IMG/VR virus record: IMGVR_UViG_3300045988_055134
Coordinates: 1,364-65,363 of that record
Length of the DNA: 64,000 nt
Direction: 5' to 3' (one strand)
Source of the DNA: a virus
Numbering within the stretch: the first letter of the stretch is position 1; every line of letters starts with the position of its first letter. Of the stretch, positions 2,814-34,935 are shown one piece after another. The notes below the pieces were generated by a model. It ran no database searches, was not told the DNA's origin, and saw only the letters and a list, made by a program, of their open reading frames with translations. A program made the translations under genes and the position numbers.

Positions 2814-3437
2814 ATGGCATACATCTATTAGATCACTAATGACATAAATGGTAAAATTTATGTCGGTAAAACTGAATTCTCTATCGAGAAACGCTTTAAG
2901 GAACATTGTCGAGATGCTTTCAAAGAGCGTAACGAAAAGCGTCCATTATATTCTGCTATGCGGAAATATGGAATTGAACATTTCCATATTGAGCTAATTG
3001 AAGAAACGGATGATCCAGAAGAGCGAGAAGTTTATTGGATTGAACAAAAACGTTCTTTCAAGAATGGATATAATGCAACCCTTGGCGGCGATGGAAAGAG
3101 ATATTGTGACTATGATTTAATATATTCTTTATATAAAGAAGGATTAAATATTAAAGAAGTTGCAAAAATTTTGAATTATTCTACGGACACTTGTTCAAAG
3201 GTGTTAAATCAATATGGTATTTCCAAAGAAGAGCGAAGTATTAAAAGTCGTTTAGGTATTATTAAGCCTGTTATACAGATAGATAAAAATACCAATCAAA
3301 TTTTGAATATTTTCCCTTCAATTAAAGCTGCTTATGATCGTTTGGGTAAACAACATTCAGGGCATATAGCTGCTGTATGCAATGGCAAACGAAAAACTGC
3401 TTATGGATACAAATGGAAATACGGTGAAACCTCGTAA
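2814..3437 (+). CDS. GIY-YIG homing endonuclease (Seg/I-TevI-like) with in-frame TAG at codon 6
   Basis: N-terminus MAYIY-TAG-ITNDINGKIYVGKT...R..H matches the GIY-YIG motif; C-terminal NUMOD-like DNA-binding region; AAAGGAG RBS. Confidence 0.8.
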
Positions 3438-3898
3438 CTTGCCAGAGCTTAGATAAGGTTATCCCTTATAGTTACGGCCACTTCCCCATTAAATGGGGTT
3501 ATGTATCACTCCTTTCCTATGTTATGGAAAAGACCCATACAGCAAATTCTTCTATTTACTTGAATACAAGAATGTTTATTGGTAAGTATATTACCTCCAG
3601 ACTATGATATATCTCTTTAAGACGGAAACAAGCGAGAGATATGGAGTCATTAGCTTGAGTTTCTGTGGGTCTTGATTTGAAAAAATAATAAACCTACACG
3701 GTTAAGCATAAATCATAAATCGTGTAGTAAAACGCTATATCAGCAAACTTTTGTGCTACTAATTTGAATAAATATAAAAGATATTTATGGTTTTAAGACC
3801 ACGATCTTAAAACTTAGTTCTTTTGGGTAGTGAACATATGGGGAACCGACAAAAGGACGAAAAGGAATTGGTTATGCCCGTTAGCGTCTTGTAAATAT

Positions 3899-3973
3899 TG
3901 GGGTGTCGCCAAGCGGCAAGGCAACGGACTTTGACTCCGGTATTCGTGAGTTCGAATCTCACCATCCCAGCCA
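3899..3973 (+). tRNA. tRNA-Gln (anticodon UUG), CCA encoded
   Basis: Close to E. coli tRNA-Gln (TGGGGT.TCGCCAAGCGG.AAGGCA); loop CTTTGAC. Confidence 0.8.
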
Positions 3974-3975
3974 TT

Positions 3976-4090
3976 TGGAAGTTAGTGTAAGAAATAACAC
4001 GCGCGTAAGATTTAGCCTAGCAATAGGTTGTAACAGCAGTTTTATCGTATGGGACGCGAGATATGGGTTCAAATCCTGTACTTCCAACCA
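3976..4090 (+). tRNA. tRNA-like gene (acceptor, D-arm, anticodon stem CGCGT/ACGCG, T-arm, CCA) with a 47-nt insertion in the anticodon-loop position that includes a GCCTA-GCAA-TAGGT GNRA hairpin
   Basis: Manual folding; class I spacing is exact except for the anticodon-loop insert; the insert contains CTA. Confidence 0.4.
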
Positions 4091-4112
4091 CATGAAAGAG
4101 AGGAGAATGTAT

Positions 4113-4544
4113 ATGTCACAATATCTTAACTTCTTTGTTCGTCACAATGAGGATTTTATTCCTCTCGCAAACTACTCTCGTAATACTCATGTTTATGATA
4201 TTGCAGAAGCCCCTTATGAAAAGATTAGGCGGTTTAGTCAAGAACAGCTTGAATCAATAGCAAGCAGATTGCGGGAGAGCAAGACTTCTGCTCATAAAGA
4301 GATTGCTCGTCTACAGCAAGAAATCGAGATTGTAAAAGGAATTATCATTACCGTGGATAATTTCGATGAATTGCTTTGCGCTATTCACAATATCACGAAC
4401 ATGATTTCTGAATATCAAGAGGATATTGAAGCTCTCGAGCGAGAAGCAATCGAGATTGAGTTTATGCGGAATATGACCTATGATGATTGCGAAATCTTCG
4501 CAGGCATTGAAATTAGTGATCCAACAATGGATGATATTTGTTAA
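4113..4544 (+). CDS. hypothetical protein (coiled-coil)
   Basis: AGGAGA RBS; ORF ends TAA. Confidence 0.55.
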   Translation: MSQYLNFFVRHNEDFIPLANYSRNTHVYDIAEAPYEKIRRFSQEQLESIASRLRESKTSAHKEIARLQQEIEIVKGIIITVDNFDELLCAIHNITNMISEYQEDIEALEREAIEIEFMRNMTYDDCEIFAGIEISDPTMDDIC

Positions 4545-5391: not shown

Positions 5392-5465
5392 GCGGGGTTA
5401 GGCTATAGGTAGACCATCAGCGTTAAAAGGCTGAAAAAGCGGTTCGAATCCGCAACCCCGCACCA
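5392..5465 (+). tRNA. atypical class I tRNA with an apparent 8-nt anticodon loop GTTAAAAG (UAA or UUA anticodon) and a 3-nt variable loop; CCA encoded
   Basis: Acceptor GCGGGGT/ACCCCGC is perfect; T-arm GCGG-TTCGAAT-CCGC; only the stem TCAGC/GCTGA fits. Confidence 0.5.
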
Positions 5466-5489: not shown

Positions 5490-6602
5490 ATGAATATTGT
5501 AAATGCAGGTTCTCGCTATCAGGTGTATGGCGAAGATGTTCAGACATACAAAGAGTTGCCTACTGCAACTTACACAGTCGGTTTCCATCCGCAGATGGGT
5601 TTTTGGCTTACCAAGCATGATGACCTTGTAATCAATGAGGGCACGATTTATGGCGATCATGCTCGCAAGGCAGATAAAATCCTTAAATCGTTTCAGATTA
5701 GCGCAAGAAACTTCGGTGTTATTCTTTCTGGTAAGAAGGGTATCGGTAAGTCTTTGCTCGCTCGAATGATTGCTAACAAATCTATTGAAAATGATATGCC
5801 TGTTATTATTGTTGATGCGGCTGTGCCCGGTATCAGCAATTTTCTTAGCTCTATTCAGCAAGAGGTAACAATCATTTTCGACGAGTTCGAAAAGACTTTC
5901 CACAAGACAGATGATGGTGATCCGCAGATAGAAATGCTTAGTCTATTTGACGGCATTGATAATGGCAAGAAATTATTCGTTATCACCTGTAACGACCCGC
6001 GTGACCTCAATGAGTTTCTTGTTAATAGACCTGGTCGTTTCCATTATCATTTCGAGATTACTTGCCCTGCACCTGAGGAAATTCGTGCTTACATGACTGA
6101 TAAGCTCGGCACTGGCTGGGACGACGAGATTGATAAGATTATTAAGCTGTCTCAGATGTCGAATATCACCTTCGACTGTTTGCGGGCTATTGCTTTTGAT
6201 CTTAAGCAGGGATACCCTCTCGAGGAAACTCTCATGGATCTAAATATCAACTACGAGCGTGATGTCGCTTATGATATTACCATTAGACTTTCTAATGGTT
6301 GGACTAATACCAAGTATAGTTACAGAGTTAACCTGTATTCTGCGGGATGGGTATATTGTGAATTTTACAATAAAGAGTTCTGCTACCACGTTAAATTCGA
6401 TGTGAAGAGTGTCGTTGCTGAGAATGGCGTGCTTTGTGTTGATCCCGATAAGGTCACACTATCGTTGCCGTGGGATGCTTTTGATGAGCTGCCAGACAAC
6501 GATGCAGAGATTGCTAAGAAACAGTGGCTCAATTCCACCTCCATTCTTTCTCTCACACTCACTAAGGTAAACGACTTGATGATTAACAAGTTTGGTGTGT
6601 AA
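5490..6602 (+). CDS. AAA+ ATPase (Walker A GKKGIGKS, sensor NRPGRFH)
   Basis: Motif content; GGAAG RBS. Confidence 0.75.
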   Translation: MNIVNAGSRYQVYGEDVQTYKELPTATYTVGFHPQMGFWLTKHDDLVINEGTIYGDHARKADKILKSFQISARNFGVILSGKKGIGKSLLARMIANKSIENDMPVIIVDAAVPGISNFLSSIQQEVTIIFDEFEKTFHKTDDGDPQIEMLSLFDGIDNGKKLFVITCNDPRDLNEFLVNRPGRFHYHFEITCPAPEEIRAYMTDKLGTGWDDEIDKIIKLSQMSNITFDCLRAIAFDLKQGYPLEETLMDLNINYERDVAYDITIRLSNGWTNTKYSYRVNLYSAGWVYCEFYNKEFCYHVKFDVKSVVAENGVLCVDPDKVTLSLPWDAFDELPDNDAEIAKKQWLNSTSILSLTLTKVNDLMINKFGV

Positions 6603-6612
6603 GTAAATATAA

Positions 6613-6647
6613 ACCCTGTCATTATTATATAATGACAGGGTTTTTTG
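6613..6647 (+). terminator. rho-independent terminator (CCCTGTCATTA...TAATGACAGGG then a T-run)
   Basis: Perfect inverted repeat followed by TTTTTT. Confidence 0.7.
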
Positions 6648-6776
6648 TTGCATATATGTGGGCATTGGACCGCGCTCGGTGCAAACGCAAAGTAGTTTTA
6701 GAATTTTTCGGGCCAAATATGGGAAAATGACTTGCTACAATTTTTATATCTATGTGAGAGGAGGGATTTATAAGAA

Positions 6777-6989
6777 TGGCTGATTTAGTAGTTCTTAAAG
6801 GTTCTTTTGCCAATCTCGATAGCATCCCGATTAAAGAGGGCTAGTTGATTTTCACGACAGATGAGGGTAATCGTCTGATTTTCTTGGATACTGATAACAG
6901 TACTCGAGTATAGATCACTTCTCCCGCGATTGAGGATACTGATACAATCATTTTGGACGCCGGCGGCGCTCCTATAACAATAGGAGGTT
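6777..6989 (+). CDS. small protein with two in-frame TAG codons; its N-terminal motif is shared with the neighbouring fibre-like genes
   Basis: GAGGAGGG RBS; ATG 6777; ends TAA 6987. Confidence 0.5.
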
Positions 6990-6996
6990 AAGGCAT

Positions 6997-7509
6997 ATGG
7001 CTGTTAAAACAATTTAGATTGTCTTAAAGATGCGCCGTGATAATGATTACAATTACGAGAAGGTAAAGGATAGTTTTATTCCCGAAAAGGGCGAAATTTG
7101 TTTAGTAGATACTGCTAAGCAAGGCCTTTGCGTGATTGTTGGCGATGGCGTGTCAACTTATGGAAGTCTTGAGTATGAGAATACTATCTTCCAACGCGCT
7201 TATTTCATTGGTGAAAAGATTTTCAAAGATGTTGATGGCACTCAAGAAATCACTCCTAATGAAAATAAAATTTATATTGATGCCAATAACTCAAATGCTT
7301 TATATTATTATAATGGTGTTGAGTTTGTTGGCATTGGACCGGGTTCGCTTCCCGTAGCGTCTGCGGAAACCGCTGGTATTATGAAACTTTACACTGGTAG
7401 TGGAGAGAATACTGATGGCACCATGACGCAAAAAGCGATTACAGATGTACTGAACACCAAAATTGGCGTTACAGTTAATTTAGAAGATGAAATAGCTATC
7501 TTCAAATAA
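6997..7509 (+). CDS. tail-fibre/structural-like protein with in-frame TAG at codon 7
   Basis: TAGGAGG RBS; ATG 6997 is in frame with ORF 7030-7509. Confidence 0.6.
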
Positions 7510-7532
7510 TCTTATAGGAAGAAATTAATTTT

Positions 7533-8741
7533 ATGGCTATTTTTGATCCTAAGAATGTTCCTGTTATTTCCAAACTAACTATTGGAGATCAGACTTATTA
7601 TCTAAAGGACGCTGAAGTTCGTGAGCTGCTTAAGACTCTTGGTACTGCTGCTCAGAAAGATGTTGCCGCGGGTGTTGGCGCTGATGAGCAGGGTCTTGTA
7701 ACTGGTGCTCAGGTTCAGGCTGCCATTGCTAGCTCTATGCACTTCCGCGGTGTTGTTACTTCTTTTGATGACATTACCGATCCTGCCGCAGGTGATGTAA
7801 TTATCATTGGTGTTAAGGAGTACGTGTATGGCGGTGAGCCTGCTACATGGCATGAGCTTGGCGATGAGAGCATTTATGCTTTAAAGACTGTTACTATTGG
7901 TACTCAGAATCTGTCTGCTAATATTAACCTTGATACCCTTGCTGCGGATATGGGTCTTGGCAAGCTGGCTAAGAAGGATTCCGCTACTGGTACCGTAGCT
8001 GGCCAGACTATTACCGGTCTGAAGGCTAAGGGCAATGCCGCGGGTTCTATTGAGGTTGGTCTTACTCAGACTGCAACTGATGCTACTCTAACCAAGAGTG
8101 ATTATACTCCAGCAGGTACTGTAACCGGTACGACAACTGCTGCTGGTACTGTTAGTATTGCTAAGGATGCTGAAAACGGTGTTCAAATTTCCGGTTCTGT
8201 GTCTGCACCAAACGTAACCGTAACCCCAGCTAAGGATAGTATTAAAAAGGTAACTTCCGTTGGTTCTTTGCCGTCTAAGGCTAAGGATACTTTTGTTACC
8301 AACGGCGATGATACTTTTACTCAAGGTTCTCAGGCTTCTTGGAGTGCTTCTGTTGATGATGCCACTGAGACTTTAAGTTTTAGCTTTACCGCGAATGTAC
8401 TTCCTACTTTTGTGCAGGGCGCAAAGGCTTCTTATACAGAAGGTGCATTTGATGCAGGTACTCTTCCAGAACTTGCTGAAACCGCAACCGATGTTGTAAC
8501 TGGTATTACTAGCGCGACTGCTACGGCTCCAGTATTTACTGGCGATAAATTTGCAGCTACCTTTGCTGGTAATGAAGTCGATGTTAATGCTACCTTCGCA
8601 GGCACTAAGACTCAGGTTGTTACCGGCGTATCTTACGATAAGGCTGGCGTAGACACTGACAAGACCAAGTTCACTGGCGCTGCTGTTGAGCTTGATGTTG
8701 ACGACGTAGTAGTTACCGCTAAGGAAGTTACTGTTAAGTAA
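7533..8741 (+). CDS. Ala/Thr/Gly/Val-rich structural (fibre-like) protein
   Basis: Low-complexity TGT/TAT repeats; high GC; N-terminal motif ..YYLKDAEVREL. Confidence 0.6.
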   Translation: MAIFDPKNVPVISKLTIGDQTYYLKDAEVRELLKTLGTAAQKDVAAGVGADEQGLVTGAQVQAAIASSMHFRGVVTSFDDITDPAAGDVIIIGVKEYVYGGEPATWHELGDESIYALKTVTIGTQNLSANINLDTLAADMGLGKLAKKDSATGTVAGQTITGLKAKGNAAGSIEVGLTQTATDATLTKSDYTPAGTVTGTTTAAGTVSIAKDAENGVQISGSVSAPNVTVTPAKDSIKKVTSVGSLPSKAKDTFVTNGDDTFTQGSQASWSASVDDATETLSFSFTANVLPTFVQGAKASYTEGAFDAGTLPELAETATDVVTGITSATATAPVFTGDKFAATFAGNEVDVNATFAGTKTQVVTGVSYDKAGVDTDKTKFTGAAVELDVDDVVVTAKEVTVK

Positions 8742-11350: not shown

Positions 11351-11437
11351 GCGAACGTAGTCAAGTGGATTAAGACCCCGGCCTGCAAAGCTGTGTGACC
11401 CGTAAGGGCGTGAGTTCGAATCTCACCGTTCGCTCCA
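11351..11437 (+). tRNA. class II (long variable arm) tRNA with apparent anticodon GCA (Cys codons); anticodon stem is weak
   Basis: Acceptor GCGAACG/CGTTCGC, loop CTGCAAA, variable arm with CCC-GTAA-GGG hairpin, T-arm GTGAG-TTCGAAT-CTCAC, CCA. Confidence 0.5.
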
Positions 11438-11440
11438 TAA

Positions 11441-11515
11441 GACCTTAACAGCAAAGGAATGGACTGTAAATCCGTCGCTTATGCTACGCAGGTTCGAATC
11501 CTGCCCTCCTCACCA
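11441..11515 (+). tRNA. tRNA-Tyr(GUA)-like element lacking a complementary 5' acceptor strand; it abuts the CCA of the preceding tRNA
   Basis: Anticodon arm ATGGA-CTGTAAA-TCCGT, T-arm GCAGG-TTCGAAT-CCTGC, 3' CCTCCTC-A-CCA. Confidence 0.45.
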
Positions 11516-11628
11516 CTATATGCGGAGGTAGGGAAGTGGTCAAACCCAACGGAACCAAAAACAATAGGTCTAGAATTTAATCTCCCTTGTCCAAGGGAGC
11601 GACTAAAAATCAAAAGGAGATTGATACA

Positions 11629-13116
11629 ATGAATACTTTTATGAACGCTATGAAGCAGGACACTAACTTCACTCTGACTGAGAATGGCGCTATTACTCAT
11701 AAGTCTACGCTAAATGGACTTATGGATCTTTTTGCGCTTGGAGGCGCTTATCGTCAGCGCACTGATGCAGATTGCATCACTCTGTTCAAGGCTGCTTTTG
11801 ATGAGGACGAGGCTCATGCGCTGAAGTGTCTGTTTTATCTGCGCGATGTGCGTGGTGGACAGGGAGAACGTCGTTTCTTCCGCGTGGTTTCTCGTTGGCT
11901 TGCCTTCAATGAAACTGCAGCAATGCGCCGTAATCTGAAGTTCGTGCCCGAGTATGGTCGCTGGGATGATTTCTACGTCTTTGTCGGCACTCCTCTGGAG
12001 GACGAGGCTTTCAAGATTATGCGGCATCAGCTTGCGCTCGATGTTTCTTGTAAGACTCCGTCGCTTCTTGCTAAGTGGCTGAAGTCTGAGAACACTTCTT
12101 CTAAGGAGTCGCGCCGTCTGGCAACGATCTCTCGCAATCATTTCCATATGACTCCGAAGGAGTATCGCAAGACTCTGTCTGTACTGCGCGAGCGCATCCG
12201 CATTGTCGAACGTCTTATGTCTGAAAACCGTTGGGATGAGATTGAGTTTGATAAAATTCCTTCTCGCGCAGGCATTATCTATCGTAACGCATTTGCGCGT
12301 CGCGATATGATTAAGGCAAAGTATGAGGCTTTTGCTAAGGATACTGAAACTACCGTTAACGCTGGTGCGCTGTATCCGCATGACATTGCTCATCGTGCCT
12401 TCAACTCTCGCCATAAGAGCCTGGAAGAGCCTGAGCGTCTAATGCTCCAGAAATATTGGGATAATCTGCCCAATTTCTATGGCGACAATGCAGAGAATGG
12501 GATCGCGATTGTCGATGTTTCTGGCTCTATGTCTGGTGTTCCTATGGAAGCGGCTGTTTCTATGGGCGCATACATTGCAGATAAGGCGCACGGTCCGTTT
12601 GCTAACCACTTCATTACTTTTTCTGGCTCTCCGAAGCTGGTAAAGTTCGAAGGCGCAGATATTACGGATAAGCTGTGTCGCTGCATTAGCGCGGATTGGG
12701 GTATGAATACTAATATCGAAGCTGTTTTCGATATGCTGCTTGCGACCGCTATGAAGCAGTCTGTCCGTGCGGAAGATATGCCTGAGCGCGTATATATCTT
12801 TTCGGATATGGAATTTGATCGCTGTGTAACGAGTAATCATTTTACTGGCGGATGGTTTCGTGGCATGGAAATGCAGCAGATCAACACTCTCTTTGAAGAC
12901 ATGAAGGCTAAGTGGGCGCGTTGCAGTTACAAGATGCCGAGCTGTGTCTTTTGGAACTTGAACGCGCGTAATAACAACATTCCCGCGATTGGGGATGGCT
13001 TTAGCTATGTAAGCGGCTTTAGCCCTATTATGATCCAGCAGATTCTGAGTGGTAAGGACGGACTTGATCTTGTTCTTGAGAAGCTGGATAGTGAGCGTTA
13101 CGCGCGGATTCACTAA
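11629..13116 (+). CDS. vWA-domain protein (MIDAS motif DVSGSMSG), DUF2828/TROVE-like
   Basis: Motif content; AAAAGGAG RBS. Confidence 0.7.
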   Translation: MNTFMNAMKQDTNFTLTENGAITHKSTLNGLMDLFALGGAYRQRTDADCITLFKAAFDEDEAHALKCLFYLRDVRGGQGERRFFRVVSRWLAFNETAAMRRNLKFVPEYGRWDDFYVFVGTPLEDEAFKIMRHQLALDVSCKTPSLLAKWLKSENTSSKESRRLATISRNHFHMTPKEYRKTLSVLRERIRIVERLMSENRWDEIEFDKIPSRAGIIYRNAFARRDMIKAKYEAFAKDTETTVNAGALYPHDIAHRAFNSRHKSLEEPERLMLQKYWDNLPNFYGDNAENGIAIVDVSGSMSGVPMEAAVSMGAYIADKAHGPFANHFITFSGSPKLVKFEGADITDKLCRCISADWGMNTNIEAVFDMLLATAMKQSVRAEDMPERVYIFSDMEFDRCVTSNHFTGGWFRGMEMQQINTLFEDMKAKWARCSYKMPSCVFWNLNARNNNIPAIGDGFSYVSGFSPIMIQQILSGKDGLDLVLEKLDSERYARIH

Positions 13117-13226: not shown

Positions 13227-14045
13227 GTGTCTTATAATATGTATAAAGAAGAATTTAGCAGCATTTTTGAGCTTATGAACACGCTTAAAGAACGACCAAA
13301 CAATAGGTTTATGAGAGATGAACATAGTTCTCAAAAGACTGGTAACTCGAATTGGAGCGGTACAAATACTTATGAGGAAGCTGAATCTCTCTTGATTTAT
13401 GGATATCATGATCCAGTTAAAAATATCAAGAGCAATCTGATAAAGAACAAAAAGTTGGTTAGTAAGATGTATAATCTTATTCCTAAGCCGATTGCAACTA
13501 ATCAGATTGTAGGTTTCGTGCCTAATGTACCAAATGCGCTAATGGGCTTGCCGAAGTCTATGATTTCAGTAGAGAAAATCAATAGAAAGAAGAAAACTAT
13601 TTCTATTATCTATGCTACCGGTGGCGCGGCTATGGTAGAAAAAGAAGCGCTAGAAAGTGCGGGTGCAGCTCTTGTATCTGCTATTAACCTTATTGAACTT
13701 GCGGGAATTCAGACCAGACTCTCGATAGGATTTATTCCTTCTGTCTATAATAGACAGATAATTTTCCCTACTGTAAATATCAAAAATTTCAATGAGCGCT
13801 TTAGTCTGCAAAAGATTTGTTTCCCTATGGTTCACCCCAGTATGTTTAGGCGTATTGGTTTTAAGTATCTAGAGACTTGTCCTGGTATGGAAGAAGATTT
13901 TTCTTGTGGATATGGTAGACCAGCCTCGTTAGAAGAGATTAAAACTTGCTTAAAGGAAAAAGATACTTACATTATCAACAGAGAGTGGATTACAGATCAT
14001 GATAACAACATTGAAGAAATTCTTAAATACATGGAGGTATGCTAA
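13227..14045 (+). CDS. hypothetical protein; possible partner of the MoxR/vWA pair
   Basis: AGGAAAGGAAG RBS. Confidence 0.5.
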   Translation: MSYNMYKEEFSSIFELMNTLKERPNNRFMRDEHSSQKTGNSNWSGTNTYEEAESLLIYGYHDPVKNIKSNLIKNKKLVSKMYNLIPKPIATNQIVGFVPNVPNALMGLPKSMISVEKINRKKKTISIIYATGGAAMVEKEALESAGAALVSAINLIELAGIQTRLSIGFIPSVYNRQIIFPTVNIKNFNERFSLQKICFPMVHPSMFRRIGFKYLETCPGMEEDFSCGYGRPASLEEIKTCLKEKDTYIINREWITDHDNNIEEILKYMEVC

Positions 14046-14046
14046 T

Positions 14047-15006
14047 ATGGATAACGAGAAGATGCTTAAAGCAATGATGCAGGCGGTGACTAATGCCGTA
14101 GTTGATGTTAACGCGGACGAAGTTTTCGATCAGCTGTATCCTAAGATCGAGGAAAAGATCCATCAGACTTATGGTTTTCTCCCCGAAATTCATGAAATTC
14201 GCTCTCCCGAAGGTATTCATAAGATTGTCGGCACTACGCATGAGAAGTTCGATGAAGTAGCCAATATTGTTAATCTGGATATTCCAGTATATCTGACCGG
14301 TAAAGCAGGCACCGGCAAGAATGTTATTTGTCAGCAGGTTGCGGAAGCTCTGGGTCTGGATTTTTACTTCACCAATGCCGTTACGCAGGAGTACAAACTC
14401 ACTGGCTTTATTGATGCAAATGGCAATTATCAGGAGACCCAGTTTTATAAGGCTTTTACGAAGGGCGGTCTGTTCTTCTTGGACGAGATGGATGCGTCTA
14501 TCCCCGAGACTCTGATTATTTTGAACGCGGCCATCGCGAATAGATACTTCGATTTCCCCACCGGTAAAGTCAATGCGCACCCTAATTTTAGAGTTATTGC
14601 TGCCGGTAACACGGTTGGTACCGGTGCTGATAATAACTACACTGGTCGCTATTGCTTGGATAGAGCAAGTCTTGATCGTTTTGCAATGGTGAATATCGAC
14701 TATTCTGAGAAGATTGAGATGGCAATGGCGCATGATAACAAGAAGCTCGTTTCTTTCTGTCATTGTTTTCGTAATATTACTGATAAAACCGGCATTGAGT
14801 GTCTGTTCTCTTATCGTACTCTTGATAGAATTGCAAAACTGGAGCAGGTAATTAGTAACCTGTCTGAAGTTATGGCTATCTCTCTGCTCAAGGGTATTGA
14901 CGAAGATACTCTTACTATTCTGCGGAATGAACTGTCTAATGCGCCCGGAATGTCTAACAATAAGTATGCTAAAGCAATTATTAATAGCAATGCTTGGGAT
15001 TTTTAA
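14047..15006 (+). CDS. MoxR-like AAA+ ATPase (AAA_5; GKAGTGKN, FLDEMD)
   Basis: Walker A/B motifs; GGAGGT RBS. Confidence 0.75.
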   Translation: MDNEKMLKAMMQAVTNAVVDVNADEVFDQLYPKIEEKIHQTYGFLPEIHEIRSPEGIHKIVGTTHEKFDEVANIVNLDIPVYLTGKAGTGKNVICQQVAEALGLDFYFTNAVTQEYKLTGFIDANGNYQETQFYKAFTKGGLFFLDEMDASIPETLIILNAAIANRYFDFPTGKVNAHPNFRVIAAGNTVGTGADNNYTGRYCLDRASLDRFAMVNIDYSEKIEMAMAHDNKKLVSFCHCFRNITDKTGIECLFSYRTLDRIAKLEQVISNLSEVMAISLLKGIDEDTLTILRNELSNAPGMSNNKYAKAIINSNAWDF

Positions 15007-15483: not shown

Positions 15484-16287
15484 ATGAAGTATTTTGTTGA
15501 CTTTGAAGCTACTCAGTTCGCGGGAGAGATTATTTCGATTGGTTGCGTGCGGGAAGATGGCAAGACTTTTTACTCGCTTGTGGCTCCCAGTAATTTTAAT
15601 AAAGTCACTGAATTTATCACTAAGCTGACAGGTCTCACGGTAGATATGCTGAAAAGTGCGCCGTCCGCGGACAAGGCTTTTGAAGAGTTCTATGATTGGG
15701 CTTTTGATGATGTTGATGATATGCCAGAGTTCTATGCTTGGGGTAACGCTGATATTGAATATCTGCGCCATACGTTCCATAATACGACTTCTATGAAAGC
15801 ACGTACTATGATGGGTTATATGTGCGGTGATATGAGAAATGCAGCCAAATGGTTCAGTAAGAGAACTAAAATTAAGGATTGCGCTTTGATTAGAGCCTAT
15901 AACCTCTTGATTGACAATGCAGCAGTTCAGACTCATAATTCTCTTGATGATGCAATGATGTTGGCTAAGGTCGTTAAGATTACTGATTCTATTCCTGCTG
16001 AAGAGCTGCGAGAGAAAATGGGTGTTAAGAAGAAAGAGGAAGTAGCTCCTTCTGTTAAGTTGAATGAAGTAGAATTTTCTGTCGGGACTGTTTGTATTGT
16101 AAACAAGAAGAAAGCAGTAATCAATCATTTTGATAACTTGCAGGCAGCTGCCGAGTGGGTTATTACCACAAAGGTTGGTGTAAAGCAACAGGAAACTATT
16201 AATGAGGATAATGTTGCTAAGAAAATTAAGCGAGCTTGCTTGAACGGTAAACTCTATTTTAGCTATAAATGGAGACTTATTGCATGA
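15484..16287 (+). CDS. DEDDh 3'-5' exonuclease (DnaQ-like; Exo I VDFEATQ, Exo III HNSLDDAMM)
   Basis: Motif content. Confidence 0.7.
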   Translation: MKYFVDFEATQFAGEIISIGCVREDGKTFYSLVAPSNFNKVTEFITKLTGLTVDMLKSAPSADKAFEEFYDWAFDDVDDMPEFYAWGNADIEYLRHTFHNTTSMKARTMMGYMCGDMRNAAKWFSKRTKIKDCALIRAYNLLIDNAAVQTHNSLDDAMMLAKVVKITDSIPAEELREKMGVKKKEEVAPSVKLNEVEFSVGTVCIVNKKKAVINHFDNLQAAAEWVITTKVGVKQQETINEDNVAKKIKRACLNGKLYFSYKWRLIA

Positions 16288-16839: not shown

Positions 16840-17145
16840 ATGGGACGAATTACAAGACATAGCAAAGAGCGTATTGTTCAGCGAACCGATGGTTGCACTA
16901 GTTTTGCAGAAGCTAAAAAGCTAGCTAAGCAAGCTAAACGCTCCGGTGCGACGATTAATCAATTCCAGAAGTTTCCGCGATTTTTCTCTTACTTACAGAA
17001 CAAAAGAAATCAAACAAATACTTGCTCTATCAGAATATATCGGGGAAACATCTACATCTGGAGAGGTAAGGATACGCTCATTACCGCGCATCCTATTCCC
17101 GAGAGATATGTTAAAGAAATGGAGGCTATTGATAATGAAAAATGA
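16840..17145 (+). CDS. DUF4258-like (RelE/ParE-fold) small protein
   Basis: ITRHSKERIVQR motif; GAGAGGAAGAGG RBS. Confidence 0.4.
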   Translation: MGRITRHSKERIVQRTDGCTSFAEAKKLAKQAKRSGATINQFQKFPRFFSYLQNKRNQTNTCSIRIYRGNIYIWRGKDTLITAHPIPERYVKEMEAIDNEK

Positions 17146-17926
17146 AATTATGCAGCGTGTTCATGATCATCTGGAGGAAGCAAGAGAGACATTTGATAGC
17201 TCTCGTATCGTAGGTATTTTCCTTCAAGGCTCTCAAAATTATGGTTTGCAAATCCCGACTAGTGATGTGGATACCAAATTGATCCTCACTCCTACCTTTA
17301 AGGAGATTGTTTTCAATAAGAAACCAATCAGTACCACTCATGTTCGTGCCAACGATGAGTATACTGACCTTAAAGATATTCGCCTGATGTTCTCTACTTT
17401 CCGCAAGCAAAATCTCAATTTCATCGAGATCCTGTTCACTCCTTATCTGTGGGTAAATCCGCTTTTCGCAGATGAATGGAATAGACTGACTGCGGAACGC
17501 GAGAAAATTGCGCATTATTCTCCTTATAGTGCGGTAAAAACCATGAAGGGTATTGCTATGGAGAAGTACCATGCGATGGAGCATGAGTATCCTAGTAAAG
17601 TCGCCGTTCTCGCTAAATATGGCTACGACCCAAAACAGCTGCACCATCTACTGAGAGTACAGGAGTATATCCATCGTTATACTGAAGGCGAGTCTTACGA
17701 GGATTGTCTGCATCCCCGCAATCCAGAATTTCTTGTCGCAGTTAAGCAGGGATATTTTAATCTTGAGCAAGCGCGCATTTCTGCCAACAGTGCGATGGAA
17801 GATGTTCTTGCAACTGCGGACGCATTTTGTGAGAAAGTAGGCAAGTCTTTCGATCCTGAAGTCGATGAACTGCTTGATGATGTGCAATATAATATCGTGA
17901 AAGCCGCAATCCAGAAGGAGTTTTAA
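17135..17926 (+). CDS. Pol-beta superfamily nucleotidyltransferase (G-S-x10-SDVD)
   Basis: GSQNYGLQIPTSDVD motif; GGAGG RBS. Confidence 0.65.
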   Translation: MKNEIMQRVHDHLEEARETFDSSRIVGIFLQGSQNYGLQIPTSDVDTKLILTPTFKEIVFNKKPISTTHVRANDEYTDLKDIRLMFSTFRKQNLNFIEILFTPYLWVNPLFADEWNRLTAEREKIAHYSPYSAVKTMKGIAMEKYHAMEHEYPSKVAVLAKYGYDPKQLHHLLRVQEYIHRYTEGESYEDCLHPRNPEFLVAVKQGYFNLEQARISANSAMEDVLATADAFCEKVGKSFDPEVDELLDDVQYNIVKAAIQKEF

Positions 17927-20191: not shown

Positions 20192-21457
20192 ATGGCATAT
20201 TTTGGTTTGATAACTCGACTGCAGAACTGCCGCAAGGACGAGAACTCTGATCGTCTGTATCTCGCCGATTGCTTTAATGAAGGCGTCATCATCGGTCCTG
20301 ACATGAAGACCGGCGACCCTGTTCTGTATCTGCCTACCGACGGCGAGATTGACCATTGGTTTGGTGATAAATTCAAACTCTTCCGCAAGAATGAGGATGG
20401 TACTGAGCAGGGTGGTTATCTGGAGAATAATGGCCATGTGCGGGCGATTAAGCTCCGTGGCAACCAGAGTTCTGGTATTGTCATTTCTCTTCCTCATGTC
20501 TATGAGGTATTTGGCGATCAGCATTGGGAGGATGGCGACAAGGTAAATACCGTCAATGATAAAGAGTTCTGCCGCAAGTATATCCCGAAGCGTAAATATC
20601 CGCAGACTGCGGCCAAGACTTCTTATAAGGGTCGTAAGGCAGAGGGTATTGTATATCCGGATTTTGCAATGCACATTGATACTGCGCAGCTTGCTTACAA
20701 TCTTGATGCGTTCCGTCCGGGTGATCAGTTGAACATGACTCTCAAGATGCACGGTACTTCTCAGCGTTCTATGAATACTGTTGCGGAGCTGCCGAATGGC
20801 TTCTTTCGTCGTCTGTTTCATATGAAGAAGCGTACTAAGCAGGCTTATGTACTTGGTACTCGTCGTTGTGTAGTTTCTGAGGATGATGGTGGCTACTACG
20901 GTGATAATAAGTTTCGACTGCCGCATCACGAGGCGCTGAAGCCGTTCCTTGAGCCGGGCATGGAAGTCTTTTACGAGGTCGTAGGTTACTATGGTCTTGG
21001 CGATGGAGATACTATCATGCCGATTGGCGATAACTCGAAGCTGAAAGATAAGGCTTTCCAGAAGCAGTTCGGCAAGCGTTCTATTTTCTCTTACGGGTGC
21101 GAGCCGGGTGAGTCTCATATGTGGATTTACCGCATCACTTCTGAGAACGGCGAGCGCGAGTGGACTCCTGACGAGATTACTGCATGGTGCGATAAGCATG
21201 GCTTTAATCGAGTACCAGTGATTGACAACTTTGAGTTTACTACCGTAGATGATCTGTTGAAGCGCATCAATGATTACTTCGAGGATCTTGCAGACCCGAT
21301 TGGCAAAACTCATGTCAAGGAGGGCGTTGTAATCCGTATTGTAAATCGTCGTTCTTTCACTGCTTTCAAGTCTAAGACCTACGAGTTTAAGGTACTTGAA
21401 GGTATCATTAAGGAGACTGAAACCGCTCCAGATATGGAGGAAGCGCAGGAGGTATGA
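20192..21457 (+). CDS. RNA ligase, Rnl2/Rnl5-like (motif I KMHGTS) with N-terminal extension
   Basis: KxHGT nucleotidyltransferase motif. Confidence 0.6.
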   Translation: MAYFGLITRLQNCRKDENSDRLYLADCFNEGVIIGPDMKTGDPVLYLPTDGEIDHWFGDKFKLFRKNEDGTEQGGYLENNGHVRAIKLRGNQSSGIVISLPHVYEVFGDQHWEDGDKVNTVNDKEFCRKYIPKRKYPQTAAKTSYKGRKAEGIVYPDFAMHIDTAQLAYNLDAFRPGDQLNMTLKMHGTSQRSMNTVAELPNGFFRRLFHMKKRTKQAYVLGTRRCVVSEDDGGYYGDNKFRLPHHEALKPFLEPGMEVFYEVVGYYGLGDGDTIMPIGDNSKLKDKAFQKQFGKRSIFSYGCEPGESHMWIYRITSENGEREWTPDEITAWCDKHGFNRVPVIDNFEFTTVDDLLKRINDYFEDLADPIGKTHVKEGVVIRIVNRRSFTAFKSKTYEFKVLEGIIKETETAPDMEEAQEV

Positions 21458-26485: not shown

Positions 26486-27394
26486 ATGATCCCTGGACTC
26501 TATAAGATCTTTGACCACTGGCACGCTGAAGGCACGGTGTATATCTACTCTGATCCCCACTTCAATGATGAAGAGATTGTAGCAGGTGTGCCGGAACGAC
26601 CCTCCGCAGAAGAACAGGTTAAACTTATCAATAGTAAAGTTGGTAAGAAGGATACGCTCATTATTCTTGGAGATTGCGGCGATCCAGCTATGTGCGCCAA
26701 ACTGCGTGGTTACAAGGTACTTATTATGGGAAACCATGACGCCGGTCGCAGTAACTATGAGCGCAAAAAGATTTCTCGTAAGTTTCCCAAAGAAGTCTTT
26801 CAGAAATCTGAGGCTCTTGATGAAATGAAACGCGTCTATCCCGGTTGTCAGTATTTTATTACCGAAGGATATGACTTCCACTCTCCCTTTGAGTATTGGG
26901 AAGTCTTTGCGGACAATAATCTCTTTGACGAGATCTATGAAGGGCCTCTCATGATTGGTGAGAAACTTATTCTATCGCATGAACCGCTTCCTATGATGCC
27001 TTGGGTATTCAACATTCATGGTCATATCCATGATCGTTGTCACAAAGATGATGACAGACATCTGAATGTTTGCTCTGATGTAATTAACTACACGCCAGTC
27101 AATCTGAACAGGTTAATGAAGAGAGGATTAACGGCAAAAATCCAATCTGTGCATAGACAGACCATTGATGTAGCTACGAAAAGAGCGAGAAAAAGAAAAC
27201 TGAAGAACAAAGAATGTTATGATTGTAAACATTTTTACCGTGAATGGTTCCGCGGCCATGCTGCTTGTAGATGTCATAAGCATGGTTCTTTAGATTGCGA
27301 CCAGCCTAAGGAACATAGACCTGATACCGCTGCGAAACATTGCAAAGATTACTGCTACGAAAAGGGGCATCAAAAACAGAAATGTTATTTTTAA
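26486..27394 (+). CDS. calcineurin-like metallophosphoesterase with C-terminal Cys-rich tail
   Basis: DPHFND...GDCGD...GNHD motifs. Confidence 0.7.
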   Translation: MIPGLYKIFDHWHAEGTVYIYSDPHFNDEEIVAGVPERPSAEEQVKLINSKVGKKDTLIILGDCGDPAMCAKLRGYKVLIMGNHDAGRSNYERKKISRKFPKEVFQKSEALDEMKRVYPGCQYFITEGYDFHSPFEYWEVFADNNLFDEIYEGPLMIGEKLILSHEPLPMMPWVFNIHGHIHDRCHKDDDRHLNVCSDVINYTPVNLNRLMKRGLTAKIQSVHRQTIDVATKRARKRKLKNKECYDCKHFYREWFRGHAACRCHKHGSLDCDQPKEHRPDTAAKHCKDYCYEKGHQKQKCYF

Positions 27395-27812: not shown

Positions 27813-27962
27813 TGAAGCTACGTAAGCTATCTAAGACTCTCGAAAACATGGAACGAGATCTCGCCAAAATGGACGATGAAACTTTCTTCGCTCTTCTTGG
27901 GACAAGTATTGAGGAACTTAAACAAAAAGCGAAAGAAATGGAAGGAGCAAACAAAGAATGAC
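27813..27962 (+). CDS. 49-aa hypothetical protein
   Basis: Short ORF coupled to the next gene. Confidence 0.35.
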
Positions 27963-28800
27963 TGATAAACTTGGTATGCGCATGAAAGAGTTTTATGAAA
28001 CGGTTCCTAAGGCTAGATTGATGCGCAGAACTCCTGTCGCAATCCGCATTGATGGCAAGGTTTTCCACACTTTCACTCGTGGTTTTAACAAGCCTTTCGA
28101 TCATATTCTTGGAACTGCTATACAAGAAACTATGAGATACCTGTGTCAAAATATTCAAGGTTGTGTACTTGGATATACCCAGAGTGATGAAATTACTCTG
28201 ATCCTTGTAGATTATAAACGACTAAATAGCTCCGCATGGTTTGATTATGAGGTTCAGAAAATGTGCTCTGTCGCCGCATCTATGGCGACTATGGCTTTCA
28301 ATAAAGCCTTCCATAAGGCAGTTGAAGACGCAGATTTCTTCTGGAAAACTAGTCTAACTCCTCAAAGCGTTGAAATCCAGCAAGGGCATCAAAAGTACAT
28401 GGAAATTCTGCGGGCCGCCAGCTCTAAAGGCGCCATGTTTGATGCACGTTGCTTCAATATCCCGAGAGAAGAAGTTACTAACCTTATCTATTGGCGCCAG
28501 TTAGACGCAACCCGCAATTCTATCCAGATGGCAGGCCAGGCTAATTTCTCTCATAAAGAACTTCAAGGTAAATCTTGTATCCAAATCAAGAAAATGCTCT
28601 CTGATATTGGTATTGAATGGGACGATTATCCCATTTCTTATCAGCGCGGCTCTTGTTGTATTAAGACTTATATCCAAGATGTCGCTCCCGATGGAATTGA
28701 GCATATTCGTTCTGAATGGATTATTGATAAAAACATCCCGCTGTTTATCGGAGAGGGACGTGAATATATCGAATCTCTAATCCAGAGCGAGGAGGAATAA
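27958..28800 (+). CDS. Thg1-like protein (tRNA-His guanylyltransferase family, 3'-5' nucleotide addition)
   Basis: VAIRIDGKVFHTFTRGFNKPFD...YTQSDEITL signature. Confidence 0.75.
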   Translation: MTDKLGMRMKEFYETVPKARLMRRTPVAIRIDGKVFHTFTRGFNKPFDHILGTAIQETMRYLCQNIQGCVLGYTQSDEITLILVDYKRLNSSAWFDYEVQKMCSVAASMATMAFNKAFHKAVEDADFFWKTSLTPQSVEIQQGHQKYMEILRAASSKGAMFDARCFNIPREEVTNLIYWRQLDATRNSIQMAGQANFSHKELQGKSCIQIKKMLSDIGIEWDDYPISYQRGSCCIKTYIQDVAPDGIEHIRSEWIIDKNIPLFIGEGREYIESLIQSEEE

Positions 28801-33404: not shown

Positions 33405-33663
33405 AAATTCTTTTTTATTTATCATTATAAATAAGAGGTGGTTTTATTGACAATATTATTATATATCTTACTGGGAGTTCTTTTGATCACTGTGGGTACC
33501 ACCTTATTGACTAGTGTTACTGAAATCATCAGCACACTAACAGAACTTGTTAAAGCTAATATAAATGAAAGGATTGTTCGACACAATGTTACCATTAGTG
33601 AACTTAATGAGTAGAAAACTCAAACTAGAACAATCGGATTCACTACCACAACTGAAGAGGACA

Positions 33664-34935
33664 ATGAATATGTATAATGAATTTCGCTTCCCAACAGACA
33701 CTTATTTTTATGATACTTGCTCTCTGTTGTTGGGAGGAGAAGAGTTATTTGAGCAAGATACTAAGCCATTTTTAGTATCCTCTATTACACTTAAAGAGCT
33801 TGAAAGAATTAAGACAGCATCTAATAAAGACGCTGATATAAAATATGCCGCTCGTCTCTTGTTACATCTATTTGAGAAATATCCAGATAGATATGAAGTA
33901 GTCCCGCATAAGATTTGTTACGAAAAGGTCATTCTTAAAAAGGGATTTGATATTACTGATGACACTAGAATCTTGTCTGACGCAATCGCAAGAGATAAGA
34001 ATGAAGATATTGTATTCGTAACTAATGATCTTAGTCTCAAACATATCGCAAATCAATTTCTTGGTCACGGAATGATAGAAAGCGTGAACGAAGATGCTGA
34101 TAACTATACAGGTTATGTAGAAGTAATCTTAGATGATAATGAGCTAAATGACTTCTATCAAAAGGCAGATAATAACTTTGGTTTACTGCCAGGACAGTAT
34201 CTCATTATTAAAGATAAAGACAATAAGATTGTAGACCTGCGAGTTTGGACAGGTAATGAGTTCAAATATCTTGTTTCAAAGCCCATTAAATCTAAATGGT
34301 TTGGCAAGATTATCCCGTATCAAGATGACATCTATCAAAAAATGTTATTTGATAGTTTACGAAATAATAAGTTGACTTTAGTGAAAGGCCCTGCTGGTAG
34401 CGGAAAAACTTATGTTTCTCTTGCTTATTTAATGGCGAAATTAGAAGCCGGAGAGCTAGATAAAATTATCGTATTTTGTAACACTATTGCCACAGCAAAT
34501 TCTGCTAAATTGGGTTATTACCCTGGAACAAAAGATGAAAAACTACTAGATTCTCAGATCGGTAATTTGCTGAGTAGTAAATTTGGAGGCAGAGAAGCTG
34601 TTGAAAAAATGATTGCAGACGGCAAGCTAGTTCTTCTACCTTTTTCCGATATTCGTGGATATGATACAACAGGAATGAGCGCAGGCATCTATATTTCCGA
34701 AGCTCAAAATCTAGATCGTACACTTATGAAACTAGCTTTACAGCGAGTTGGCGAAGATTGTATTTGTATTATTGATGGTGACGAAAAAACCCAGGTAGAT
34801 GACATTCATTTTTCTGGAGCTAATAACGGTATGAAACGTGTCTCTAAAATCTTTAGAGGACAAGACAGTTATGGTGAAGTCACTCTTAAGAATATCTATC
34901 GAAGCAAGATTGCGGCGATTGCTGATAAAATTTAA
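33664..34935 (+). CDS. PIN-domain plus PhoH-like ATPase (YlaK-like)
   Basis: N-terminal PIN, Walker A GPAGSGKT. Confidence 0.75.
   Translation: MNMYNEFRFPTDTYFYDTCSLLLGGEELFEQDTKPFLVSSITLKELERIKTASNKDADIKYAARLLLHLFEKYPDRYEVVPHKICYEKVILKKGFDITDDTRILSDAIARDKNEDIVFVTNDLSLKHIANQFLGHGMIESVNEDADNYTGYVEVILDDNELNDFYQKADNNFGLLPGQYLIIKDKDNKIVDLRVWTGNEFKYLVSKPIKSKWFGKIIPYQDDIYQKMLFDSLRNNKLTLVKGPAGSGKTYVSLAYLMAKLEAGELDKIIVFCNTIATANSAKLGYYPGTKDEKLLDSQIGNLLSSKFGGREAVEKMIADGKLVLLPFSDIRGYDTTGMSAGIYISEAQNLDRTLMKLALQRVGEDCICIIDGDEKTQVDDIHFSGANNGMKRVSKIFRGQDSYGEVTLKNIYRSKIAAIADKI

Follow-up and report, generated by a model that had tools for sequence, protein, structure and literature searches.

A candidate Y-RNA-like, tRNA-shaped RNA in a large phage genome, with a 47-nt domain replacing the anticodon loop

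Y RNAs consist of a stem that binds the protein Ro60 and a tRNA-like module. They are known, together with Ro60, from animals, some bacteria and a few phages, and the role of the tRNA-like half is an unresolved question of the field. YrlA, a bacterial Y RNA, mimics tRNA (PMC4201824; PMC12135203), and in M. smegmatis it is cut by RNase P and receives CCA (PMC4201824). The arrangement of a Ro60 gene with an adjacent Y RNA is also found in phages (PMC4201824; PMC12135203; PMC7824862), e.g. with the Y-RNA-like Yrl1 and Yrl2 of Thermus phage phiLo (PMC4201824; PMC12135203). Other phages are known for interrupted tRNA genes, among them the 'enigmatic introns' of Lak phages, which are not group I introns (PMC6784885; PMC13037316). 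Here we describe a tRNA-like gene at positions 3976-4090 of a 64,000-nt stretch of phage DNA (positions 1,364 to 65,363 of IMG/VR record IMGVR_UViG_3300045988_055134; hereafter the window), which keeps a cloverleaf body and an encoded CCA and has a 47-nt domain where the anticodon loop should be. Our analysis points to an RNA that may well be tRNA-shaped, non-decoding and Y-RNA-like, presenting a docking module for a Ro60-like protein encoded in the same window, a proposition for which we see the scales as evenly balanced.

Cloverleaf body, inserted domain and their conservation

The gene is 115 nt long and lies on the plus strand. Its 5' body (3976-4006) comprises the 5' strand of the acceptor stem (3976-3982), U8 and A9, a D-arm (3985-4000), G26 and the 5' strand of a stem at the anticodon position (4002-4006). 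The 3' body (4054-4090) continues with the 3' strand of that stem (4054-4058), a variable loop AGAU, a T-arm (4063-4079), the 3' strand of the acceptor stem (4080-4086), a discriminator that is A here and A or G across variants, and the CCA (4088-4090). All seven acceptor pairs form (TGGAAGT/ACTTCCA), and T3975:A4087 lengthens the perfect pairing to 8 bp. The D-stem GTGT/ACAC (3985-3988/3997-4000) has 4 bp and the anticodon-position stem CGCGT/ACGCG has 5 bp, while the T-arm reads ATGGG-TTCAAAT-CCTGT, with two G.U pairs in the variant of the window and a canonical T-loop, UUCAAAU. Canonical tRNA features are thus represented by the 7-bp acceptor stem, the D-arm, the T-arm with a loop of the form UUCRANY and the 3' CCA. 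Missing are U33 and the conserved G18 G19 of the D-loop, which reads AAGAAAUA and varies between homologs; furthermore, the loop at the anticodon position has 46-49 nt across variants and not 7. A preliminary description had called this a tRNA-like gene with a structured insertion, and a second reading of the acceptor stem, D-arm, 5-bp stem, 4-nt variable loop, T-arm, CCA and 47 inserted nucleotides agrees with it.

The inserted domain occupies 4007-4053 and is 46-49 nt long in homologs. It contains a hairpin, P3 (U.AGCCUA/UAGGUU.G, 4013-4030; AGCCTA-GCAA-TAGGTT in the DNA), which is capped by the GNRA tetraloop GCAA at 4020-4023 (GUAA in some homologs) and followed by a conserved unpaired motif, UAACAGCAG (4031-4039; ACAGCAA in the relatives L002 and L021). 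AUCGU and a linker AUGGG (4044-4053) complete the domain, and this linker shows three independent 1-nt insertions in homologs. The helix that links the 5-bp stem to the hairpin could be paired in two ways, as AAGAUU/AG.UUUU, which is broken in L046, or as AAGAU/AUCGU, in which AUCGU is the possible partner of AAGAU at 4007-4011. The RNAalifold consensus is a cloverleaf with an extended arm. The preliminary description had considered a suppressor precursor, an idea which we abandon, because the CTA triplet in question (4017-4019) is base-paired inside the covarying hairpin stem.

Default ARAGORN does not call the element, and the Rfam tRNA model (RF00005) is silent on it even at E<=10, yet the same model gives 43 bits on a relative's tRNA with a 124-nt insertion. 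In intron mode, ARAGORN calls a 'tRNA-His(atg)' whose 40-nt intron would lie at position 32/33, which is not a canonical place. Since 20 dinucleotide shuffles of the 64-kb window gave 0 ARAGORN calls in intron mode, the cloverleaf is not a chance pattern.

Relatives were fetched via homologs of the open reading frame (ORF) downstream of the element and via DNA patterns, and L-numbers (L001, L002 and so on) denote these loci or contigs. The element was found in 25 further contigs, nearly all of them from gut metagenome assemblies, at 88.7-99% identity and in 15 distinct sequences (alignment A4). The insertion is present in 25 of 25, and tRNA-Gln(UUG) with UU precedes in 25 of 25; in L024 this tRNA-Gln is a divergent allele (59% identity over the segment), yet the element is kept. 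Among the 15 variants, 99-100% of the cloverleaf and hairpin pair cells hold standard pairs. Stem changes amount to nine one-sided transitions that preserve the pair, one compensatory double change and one break in a single sequence. The sole compensatory change, C:G to U:A, lies in hairpin P3 of L024, and this hairpin is 100% paired. Nine of ten variable stem pairs stay paired, whereas substitutions free of constraint would be expected to leave 33-50% paired. Most of the variation falls in the D-loop, at T-loop position 57, at the discriminator and at the 'N' of the GNRA loop, all of them places at which tRNAs and GNRA loops tolerate change; the ACAGCA motif and the hairpin are near-invariant while the D-loop drifts, and pairwise comparison mostly shows the insertion to be no less conserved than the tRNA body. 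Retained pairing and the conservation of the insertion argue against a decaying pseudogene and for an insertion that is part of what is selected.

These data bear directly on the possibility of a recent pseudogene, i.e. a module-bearing tRNA gene that lost its anticodon arm and is kept only by a young lineage, with no function. Such an origin would be in line with the lack of a recoverable anticodon, the loss of the D-loop GG and an overall divergence equal to that of neighbouring DNA. The array furthermore holds other broken tRNAs (1100-1150/1585-1658 and 11442-11504) as well as odd ones (93-166, 5392-5465). However, the maintained pairs with their one additional compensatory change, the survival of the GNRA class through a C/U change, the near-invariant motif and hairpin next to a drifting D-loop, and the retention of the element in L024 are not what a functionless remnant would display, and we regard this explanation as unlikely. 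The 'disabled tRNA' of the preliminary description stands insofar as the element cannot decode and has no conserved anticodon; it does not stand in the sense of decay, since substitutions preserve the pairs and conservation of the insertion at least equals that of the body.

The tRNA-Gln(UUG) gene (3899-3973, plus strand) lies directly upstream with a 2-nt UU spacer, and both are probably on one transcript. A 143-aa ORF with a good ribosome-binding site begins 23 nt 3' of the CCA. This position might indicate a cis-acting processing or regulatory element, in which RNase P/Z entry would free the 3' end of tRNA-Gln and make the 5' end of the downstream mRNA. The constant placement between tRNA-Gln and the ORF is consistent with such a function, as is the ordinary tRNA that distant relatives have at this place upstream of the homologous ORF. 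However, an ordinary tRNA would suffice for it and the conserved 47-nt domain with its Ro60-linked module would be left unexplained, which makes a purely cis-acting role very improbable. A search of the window for antisense targets of the conserved bulges of the element found none.

The window belongs to a large phage genome whose DNA polymerase III alpha shares approximately 39% identity with its counterparts in SPbeta-like and Enterococcus phages; the INPHARED phages gave no nucleotide match to it.

A linear RNA family linked to a Ro60-like gene

The window also contains six copies of a family of linear RNAs, all on the plus strand and all within the tRNA array, several of which begin 1-2 nt after the CCA of a tRNA. 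Family members have a 5' end of the form AUAAAG(R)C-N4-ACAGCAA(W) and a 3' end of the form NNN-G(Y)CUUG. The copies lie at 66-180 (around the odd tRNA at 93-166, whose anticodon loop has 6 nt and whose acceptor stem is mismatched), 420-481, 1033-1100, 3530-3674 (member D, AAGACCCAUACAGCAA ... GGGUCUUG), 3731-3891 (member E, 5' AAAACGCUAUAUCAGCAAA ... UUAGCGUCUUG 3', just upstream of tRNA-Gln) and 11437-11582 (member C). Member C is Y-RNA-like with a tRNA-like interior and lies directly upstream of the Ro60-like gene; its terminal stem is AAGACCU/AGGUCU and its interior gives a partial match to the Rfam tRNA model. It is approximately 72% identical in distant phages, with five compensatory pairs (compared with L003-L008), while the proteins of those phages are approximately 33% (downstream ORF) to 56% (Ro60-like protein) identical. 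A covariance model of this RNA (R1), which scores it at 116 bits, found 50 matches among the fetched loci, several per phage. In the closing stem of the family 93% of the cells are paired, and 27 double-change cells stand against 9.7 in shuffles (0 of 500). At least 119 stretches of IMG/VR match the strict sub-pattern AAGACNNNNACAGCAAN{35,65}GTCTTG, and 87 of 93 sub-pattern matches examined have at least two of three further stem pairs. The linear family is not in Rfam 15, and we found no paper describing it.

The core of the inserted domain (4010-4040) reads UUAGCCUAG-CA-AUAGGC-UGUA-ACAGCAG. In terms of the family, the 3' strand (NNNGYCUUG) comes first and the 5' strand with the motif (AAGRC-N4-ACAGCAA) second, and the nucleotides that flank these strands in the family form the tetraloop that joins them. 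Generalized over the variants, it consists of strand UUAGCCUAG, a loop, strand AUAGG(U/C)U, N4 and ACAGCAG. For a second model (R2), we took 17 linear members, with the element itself excluded, and fused the last 11 nt of each to its first 20 nt. R2 aligns to the insertion over its full length and without gaps, and all eight pairs are standard. Scores were 31.0 bits for L002 (E 2.5e-6), 24.7 for L024, 23.0-23.2 for the consensus variants and L046, and 20.6 for L047; the copy of the window scored 16.1 bits (E 0.044), the third-best match in 128 kb searched with filters off. The stem (U)AGGC(U/C)UG/UUAGCCUA(G) fits the family stem AAGRCNNN/NNNGYCUU, with one family-conserved pair flipped from A-U to U-A and not broken, and the lone compensatory pair of the element (C:G<->U:A) is the covarying R:Y pair of the family. 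The motif is correctly spaced as well, standing 4 nt after the conserved C of the stem, and reads ACAGCAG in most variants. What departs from the family is that the stem is not made by the ends of the RNA, its strands being tetraloop-joined in a permuted hairpin form. Only a model that takes in structure and permutation reveals the relation. At its core, the inserted domain carries a copy of the family's hairpin + N4 + ACAGCA end-module.

The Ro60-like gene (11629-13116, plus strand) encodes 495 aa with the domains DUF2828 and DUF7788 and is labelled "RNA-binding protein" in PHROGs; its ORF opens at 11587. The 509-aa protein read from that position was not tied to Ro60 by sequence with Pfam TROVE, NCBIfam or phmmer against PDB. 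An AlphaFold model built from 26 homologs (predicted local distance difference test, pLDDT, 77) had as its best full-length Foldseek matches Ro60 of Xenopus (1yvr, E 2e-5), Ro60 of Thermus phage phiLo (9l5y_B, E 1e-4) and human Ro60 complexes. The DUF2828-type protein is thus predicted to have a Ro60 fold. Among the RNA-pattern matches listed, a Ro60-like protein of 31-56% identity is encoded at 44 of 119 loci, which had been chosen by RNA pattern alone, whereas 13 control genes from the window are each found at 0-8 of the same loci. The nearest RNA copy is on the strand of the Ro60-like gene at 44 of 44 loci and not more than 150 nt away at 22.

Just 5' of the ribosome-binding site of the Ro60-like gene, at approximately 11582-11599, lies a hairpin CUCCCUUGUCCAAGGGAG (consensus YCYCUUGUCCAAGRGR). 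The same hairpin occurs approximately 30-60 nt before the start codon in most of 77 DUF2828 loci (L052-L130) from highly divergent phages, and it may be an autoregulatory site or an operator. Genes for DUF7192 and for a MoxR/CobS-like AAA_5 ATPase adjoin the Ro60-like gene.

A multi-copy module might also be selfish mobile DNA, a miniature element that enters tRNA genes and intergenic sites of the array and whose conserved parts are transposition signals. The module does occur in several copies per genome and, in other phages, at the same place (around position 26/27) in many types of tRNA; homing-endonuclease-like ORFs lie nearby, and short direct repeats have been seen around some copies. 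However, the variable part of the stem covaries between copies that are not identical, which is a better fit to a selected RNA structure than to recent transposition. The complete strand bias (44 of 44 loci, and all copies in the window) and the tight linkage to one protein gene are not expected of such an element, and no associated transposase was seen. We therefore consider mobile DNA an improbable explanation.

For the reading of the element as a Y-RNA-like RNA, the following mechanism can be proposed. The RNA would be cut from the co-transcript with tRNA-Gln and matured like a tRNA by RNase P and 3'-end enzymes, a route for which YrlA of M. smegmatis is a precedent. The acceptor stem, D-arm, T-arm and CCA, which selection retains, are features that RNase P, the enzymes of 3'-end and CCA maturation and further tRNA-binding proteins recognise. 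The joining of the terminal-stem strands by a tetraloop, with the RNA ends moved to the acceptor stem, amounts to a circular permutation of the family's form. By analogy with Y RNAs, the hairpin and ACAGCA module on the long arm would dock the Ro60-like protein, and the tRNA-like, L-shaped body might stabilise the RNA and could offer a point of contact for tRNA-binding partners or RNA repair enzymes. Of this mechanism, the data supply the fold with its conservation, the homology of the module, the linkage of the family to Ro60-like genes and the predicted Ro60 fold of the protein, and the remaining steps are drawn from the analogy.

Several observations weigh against this reading. The folding energy of the element is unremarkable (z = -0.7). 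Formal covariation within it is weak, with one double change and 29-52 of 500 shuffles reaching the observed value, because its lineage is shallow (at least 88% identity). The copy of the window scores only 16 bits with R2 because of a C->U change and its final G, and an unguided local alignment of the insertion with the whole window was not above shuffles. The Ro60-like protein is 12-16% identical to solved Ro60 structures, and the element lies 7.5 kb upstream of its gene, on the same strand, whereas linear members lie within approximately 0.1-0.5 kb. As the canonical motif GNCGAA/CGAA is absent, the argument for binding proceeds from genomic linkage to a very divergent Ro60-like protein. Lastly, the direct repeats noted above, AUCAGA around the module in L222 and CGGA in L204, were read by eye and are compatible with a mobile-DNA origin.

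Module-bearing tRNA genes, splicing and the tRNA array

Gapless R2 matches in other loci lie mostly within tRNA genes that ARAGORN calls "intron-bearing", and the module is present in approximately 27 of the 58 calls of this kind made in 1.5 Mb. In these genes removal of approximately 41-52 nt from position 26-28, the junction of D-arm and anticodon stem, gives one consistent, high-scoring tRNA each: Sup(CUA) in L222 (1454-1579), Leu(UAA) in L204 (4435-4573), Ile(GAU) in L237 (2155-2270), and Asn(GUU) in L240 (651-769), L138 (3660-3781), L235 (3061-3176) and in L196, where five module-bearing tRNAs follow in a row (6600-7854). The lineage with the exact element is narrow; the module family and its tRNA-embedded form are widespread. 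We tentatively suggest, as a doubtful but not far-fetched generalization, a new chimeric tRNA/Y-RNA class in large gut phages with a DUF2828-type Ro60-like protein, in which otherwise intact tRNAs for Asn, Leu and Ile and amber suppressors would carry a docking arm, made of the hairpin and ACAGCAA, at the D-arm/anticodon junction, and the same arm would replace the anticodon arm in the element described here. If this class exists, the Ro60-like protein could hold, mature or quality-control phage tRNAs or time their release, including that of code-switching suppressors, and some of the 'enigmatic tRNA introns' of phages might be accounted for.

The element behaves differently from these genes when nucleotides are removed. 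In a scan of every 20-74 nt deletion in six variants of the element, evaluated with stringent and lax ARAGORN thresholds, the stringent threshold restored no tRNA in any of the six, and the solutions at the lax threshold disagreed between variants; the same scan restored the Sup(CUA), Leu(UAA), Asn(GUU) and Ile(GAU) tRNAs of the other phages. Both junctions of the insertion carry indels (at the 3'-strand junction +G in L010/L011, +A in L049/L050 and +U in L046; at the 5' junction a 1-nt deletion in L024), and because of these the ARAGORN call depends on the variant, being His(atg), Pro(ggg) or Pro(tgg). An insertion-free allele was not found in IMG/VR (four DNA patterns), JGI metagenomes and GTDB genomes (one pattern each) or ENA/Logan contigs; the patterns returned only insertion-bearing close relatives or unrelated tRNAs. 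Taken together, the sequence data indicate that the element is not an intron-containing or decoding tRNA.

Described intron types were compared individually. Group I introns have a conserved P3-P8 catalytic core and are usually longer than 200 nt; the insertion, at 47 nt, is far below this size and has no Intron_gpI match in Rfam, in accordance with the preliminary description, which had judged it too short. Bulge-helix-bulge introns have two 3-nt bulges on opposite strands with a 4-bp helix between them, whereas both unpaired segments of the consensus fold are on the 3' strand and the junction length is not conserved. The 'novel small intron' also entertained in the preliminary description finds no backing in an Rfam match, an insertion-free allele or a deletion that yields a canonical tRNA. 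An intron-containing tRNA might still be conceived in which 40-47 nt are removed by protein enzymes, e.g. a nuclease and the phage RNA ligase, with the module as splicing signal. The insertion does lie in the anticodon region and is called by ARAGORN in intron mode, removal of the module restores excellent canonical tRNAs in other phages, whose genes may need splicing, and genes for RNA ligase, phosphoesterase, a PIN-domain protein and Thg1 are present in the window. Unexplained phage tRNA 'introns' are furthermore on record (PMC6784885; PMC13037316). Against it stand the deletion scan with its weak, variant-dependent solutions, the indels at both junctions, the missing U33 and D-loop GG, the lack of a bulge-helix-bulge and of group I or ribozyme matches, and the missing insertion-free allele in all four data sources, and we judge splicing of the element to be unlikely.

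Further candidates were rejected. No small self-cleaving ribozyme (hepatitis delta virus (HDV)-like/theta, hammerhead, twister, pistol or hatchet) matched 3890-4120 in Rfam at E<=10. Hidden anticodon loops in the insertion (CUGUAAC, AUCGUAU) have unpaired flanks, or their pairing or loop size is not conserved. An 11-nt GAAA-receptor (UAUGG/CCUAAG) and a T-box-like pairing were likenesses by eye only, the strands not being opposed. An ancestry for the tRNA body was dropped as well: the nearest relative is a phage tRNA-His (L001), but its T-arm and acceptor are also seen in a Loktanella tRNA-Gln and a Mogibacterium tRNA-His. The tRNA-His of this phage (L001 8034-8108) and of the Mogibacterium metagenome-assembled genome (L039, ~1105-1180) both have the acceptor mismatches U4.U69 and Y5.U68, and they share the T-arm and 3' acceptor strand with the element.

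Relatives also have insertion-bearing tRNAs without the ACAGCAA module. The tRNA with 43 bits in Rfam mentioned above (L003-L008 6755-6951) has a multi-hairpin insertion of 124 nt; a Leu(UAA)-like tRNA in L027 (482-626) and L028 (31-175) has a GC-rich insertion of 58 nt; and a Thr(UGU) call in L006 (11994-12180) has a 112-nt insertion with T-arm-like sequence. tRNAs with CUA anticodon, i.e. amber suppressors, are found in L002 (376-466), L029 (1728-1818), L031 (9877-9967), L003-L008 (~7864-7939) and the upstream regions of L027/L028. Their occurrence in the lineage and its relatives suggests TAG recoding in part of the genome; the long ORFs of the window read normally with the standard code.

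The RNA-repair-type gene set of the window comprises an RNA ligase (PF09414, DRB0094-like), a metallophosphoesterase, a nucleotidyltransferase, a Thg1-like enzyme, an RNase T-like exonuclease and PIN+PhoH; without the Thg1-like enzyme, and together with the neighbours of the Ro60-like gene, it covers 20192-21457, 26486-27394, 16946-17926, 15484-16287, 33565-34935 and 13227-15006. The Thg1-like 3'-5' nucleotidyltransferase is encoded at 27958-28800. The phage tRNA-His(GUG) at 342-418 has U at position -1 and C73, so that G-1 is not encoded and is presumably added by the Thg1-like enzyme.

Elsewhere in the array, a SocA/Panacea-domain ORF (1154-1591) lies between a type-II tRNA 5' half (1100-1150), similar to tRNA-Ser(AGA) in relatives, and a tRNA-Ile-like sequence that lacks its 5' part (1585-1658) and is detected by Rfam only. 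Since intact tRNA-Ser(AGA) and tRNA-Ile(GAU) are present here in relatives such as L002, an insertion destroyed two tRNA genes. The tRNA at 5392-5465 has an 8-nt anticodon loop (GUUAAAAG; 'taaa' in ARAGORN) that is conserved in L002 (7280-7353), L010 and L021. Homing-endonuclease-like ORFs of the tRNA array, namely NUMOD1/HTH at 2958-3437 and GIY-YIG in L019 (175-933) and L021 (568-1176), are present in some relatives and missing from others.

Comparison with known tRNA-like RNAs and introns

The window joins three subjects hitherto separate: a very divergent, widespread phage Ro60-like protein (DUF2828), an unannotated multi-copy RNA family tightly linked to it, and tRNA genes with the same module inside the cloverleaf, among them amber-suppressor tRNAs of related phages. 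Should the module be a docking site, phages would wire an RNA quality-control protein to tRNA-shaped RNAs, which would offer a testable handle on tRNA mimicry by Y RNAs. It would also bear on the control of phage tRNA pools and code-switching suppressors and on the nature of some phage 'tRNA introns'. For genome annotation the consequence is more immediate, as tRNA annotation pipelines will miscall or miss such genes.

Among interrupted tRNAs, group I introns and archaeal or eukaryal bulge-helix-bulge introns resemble the element only in that they interrupt the anticodon region of a tRNA gene. The tRNA introns of Lak megaphages and alternatively coded jumbo phages are closer, being conserved interruptions of the anticodon region of tens to approximately 100 nt (PMC6784885; PMC13037316). 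However, their exons give scorable tRNAs, while no tRNA can be reconstituted from the element, and an assignment to this group was rejected, ACAGCAA and CAGCAA being missing from the Lak introns of Table S6. The module-bearing tRNA genes of other phages with a Ro60-like protein share the hairpin, N4 and ACAGCAA within a cloverleaf and also stand in tRNA arrays; there the module occupies the junction of D-arm and anticodon stem and is followed by an intact anticodon arm, whereas here none is left and a GC-rich 5-bp stem closes the domain.

Transfer-messenger RNA (tmRNA) likewise has a tRNA-like acceptor and T-arm domain with CCA, lacks an anticodon and is matured by tRNA enzymes. The element differs in having no pseudoknots, and inspection revealed no tag reading frame in it; ARAGORN does not call it as tmRNA, and we rejected this identity. 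G3:U70 is the alanine identity element, and the pair at this position is G3-C70, not G3:U70.

The closest parallels are YrlA, Yrl1 and Yrl2, which also combine a protein-docking stem (putative in the element) and a conserved motif in a bulge next to it with a tRNA-like module of T-arm, D-arm and acceptor, in genomes that encode a Ro60 homologue (one by predicted fold here) and several paralogous RNAs. Differences concern the docking side. YrlA carries the motif GNCGAA(N)G/CGAA on its stem, which is absent here, with ACAGCA(A) in its stead. The docking stem of YrlA is made of the 5' and 3' ends of the RNA; that of the element would be a capped hairpin on the anticodon arm, with the ends at a 7-bp acceptor stem with CCA. 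The partner of YrlA is Ro60, while the putative partner here is of the DUF2828 type and a Ro60 by predicted fold only, and the element has no match to an Rfam family. Y RNA genes usually lie within a few kb of the Ro60 gene, whereas the element is 7.5 kb away and it is the linear family copies that adjoin the gene. In its proposed function the element is thus most like a YrlA-type Y RNA, lacking two defining features of that type, the CGAA motif and a docking stem formed from the ends. We rate the element as belonging to a known kind, the Y-RNA-like tRNA mimics of phages, and its motif, its very divergent putative Ro60-like partner family and its permuted, tRNA-embedded topology as new.

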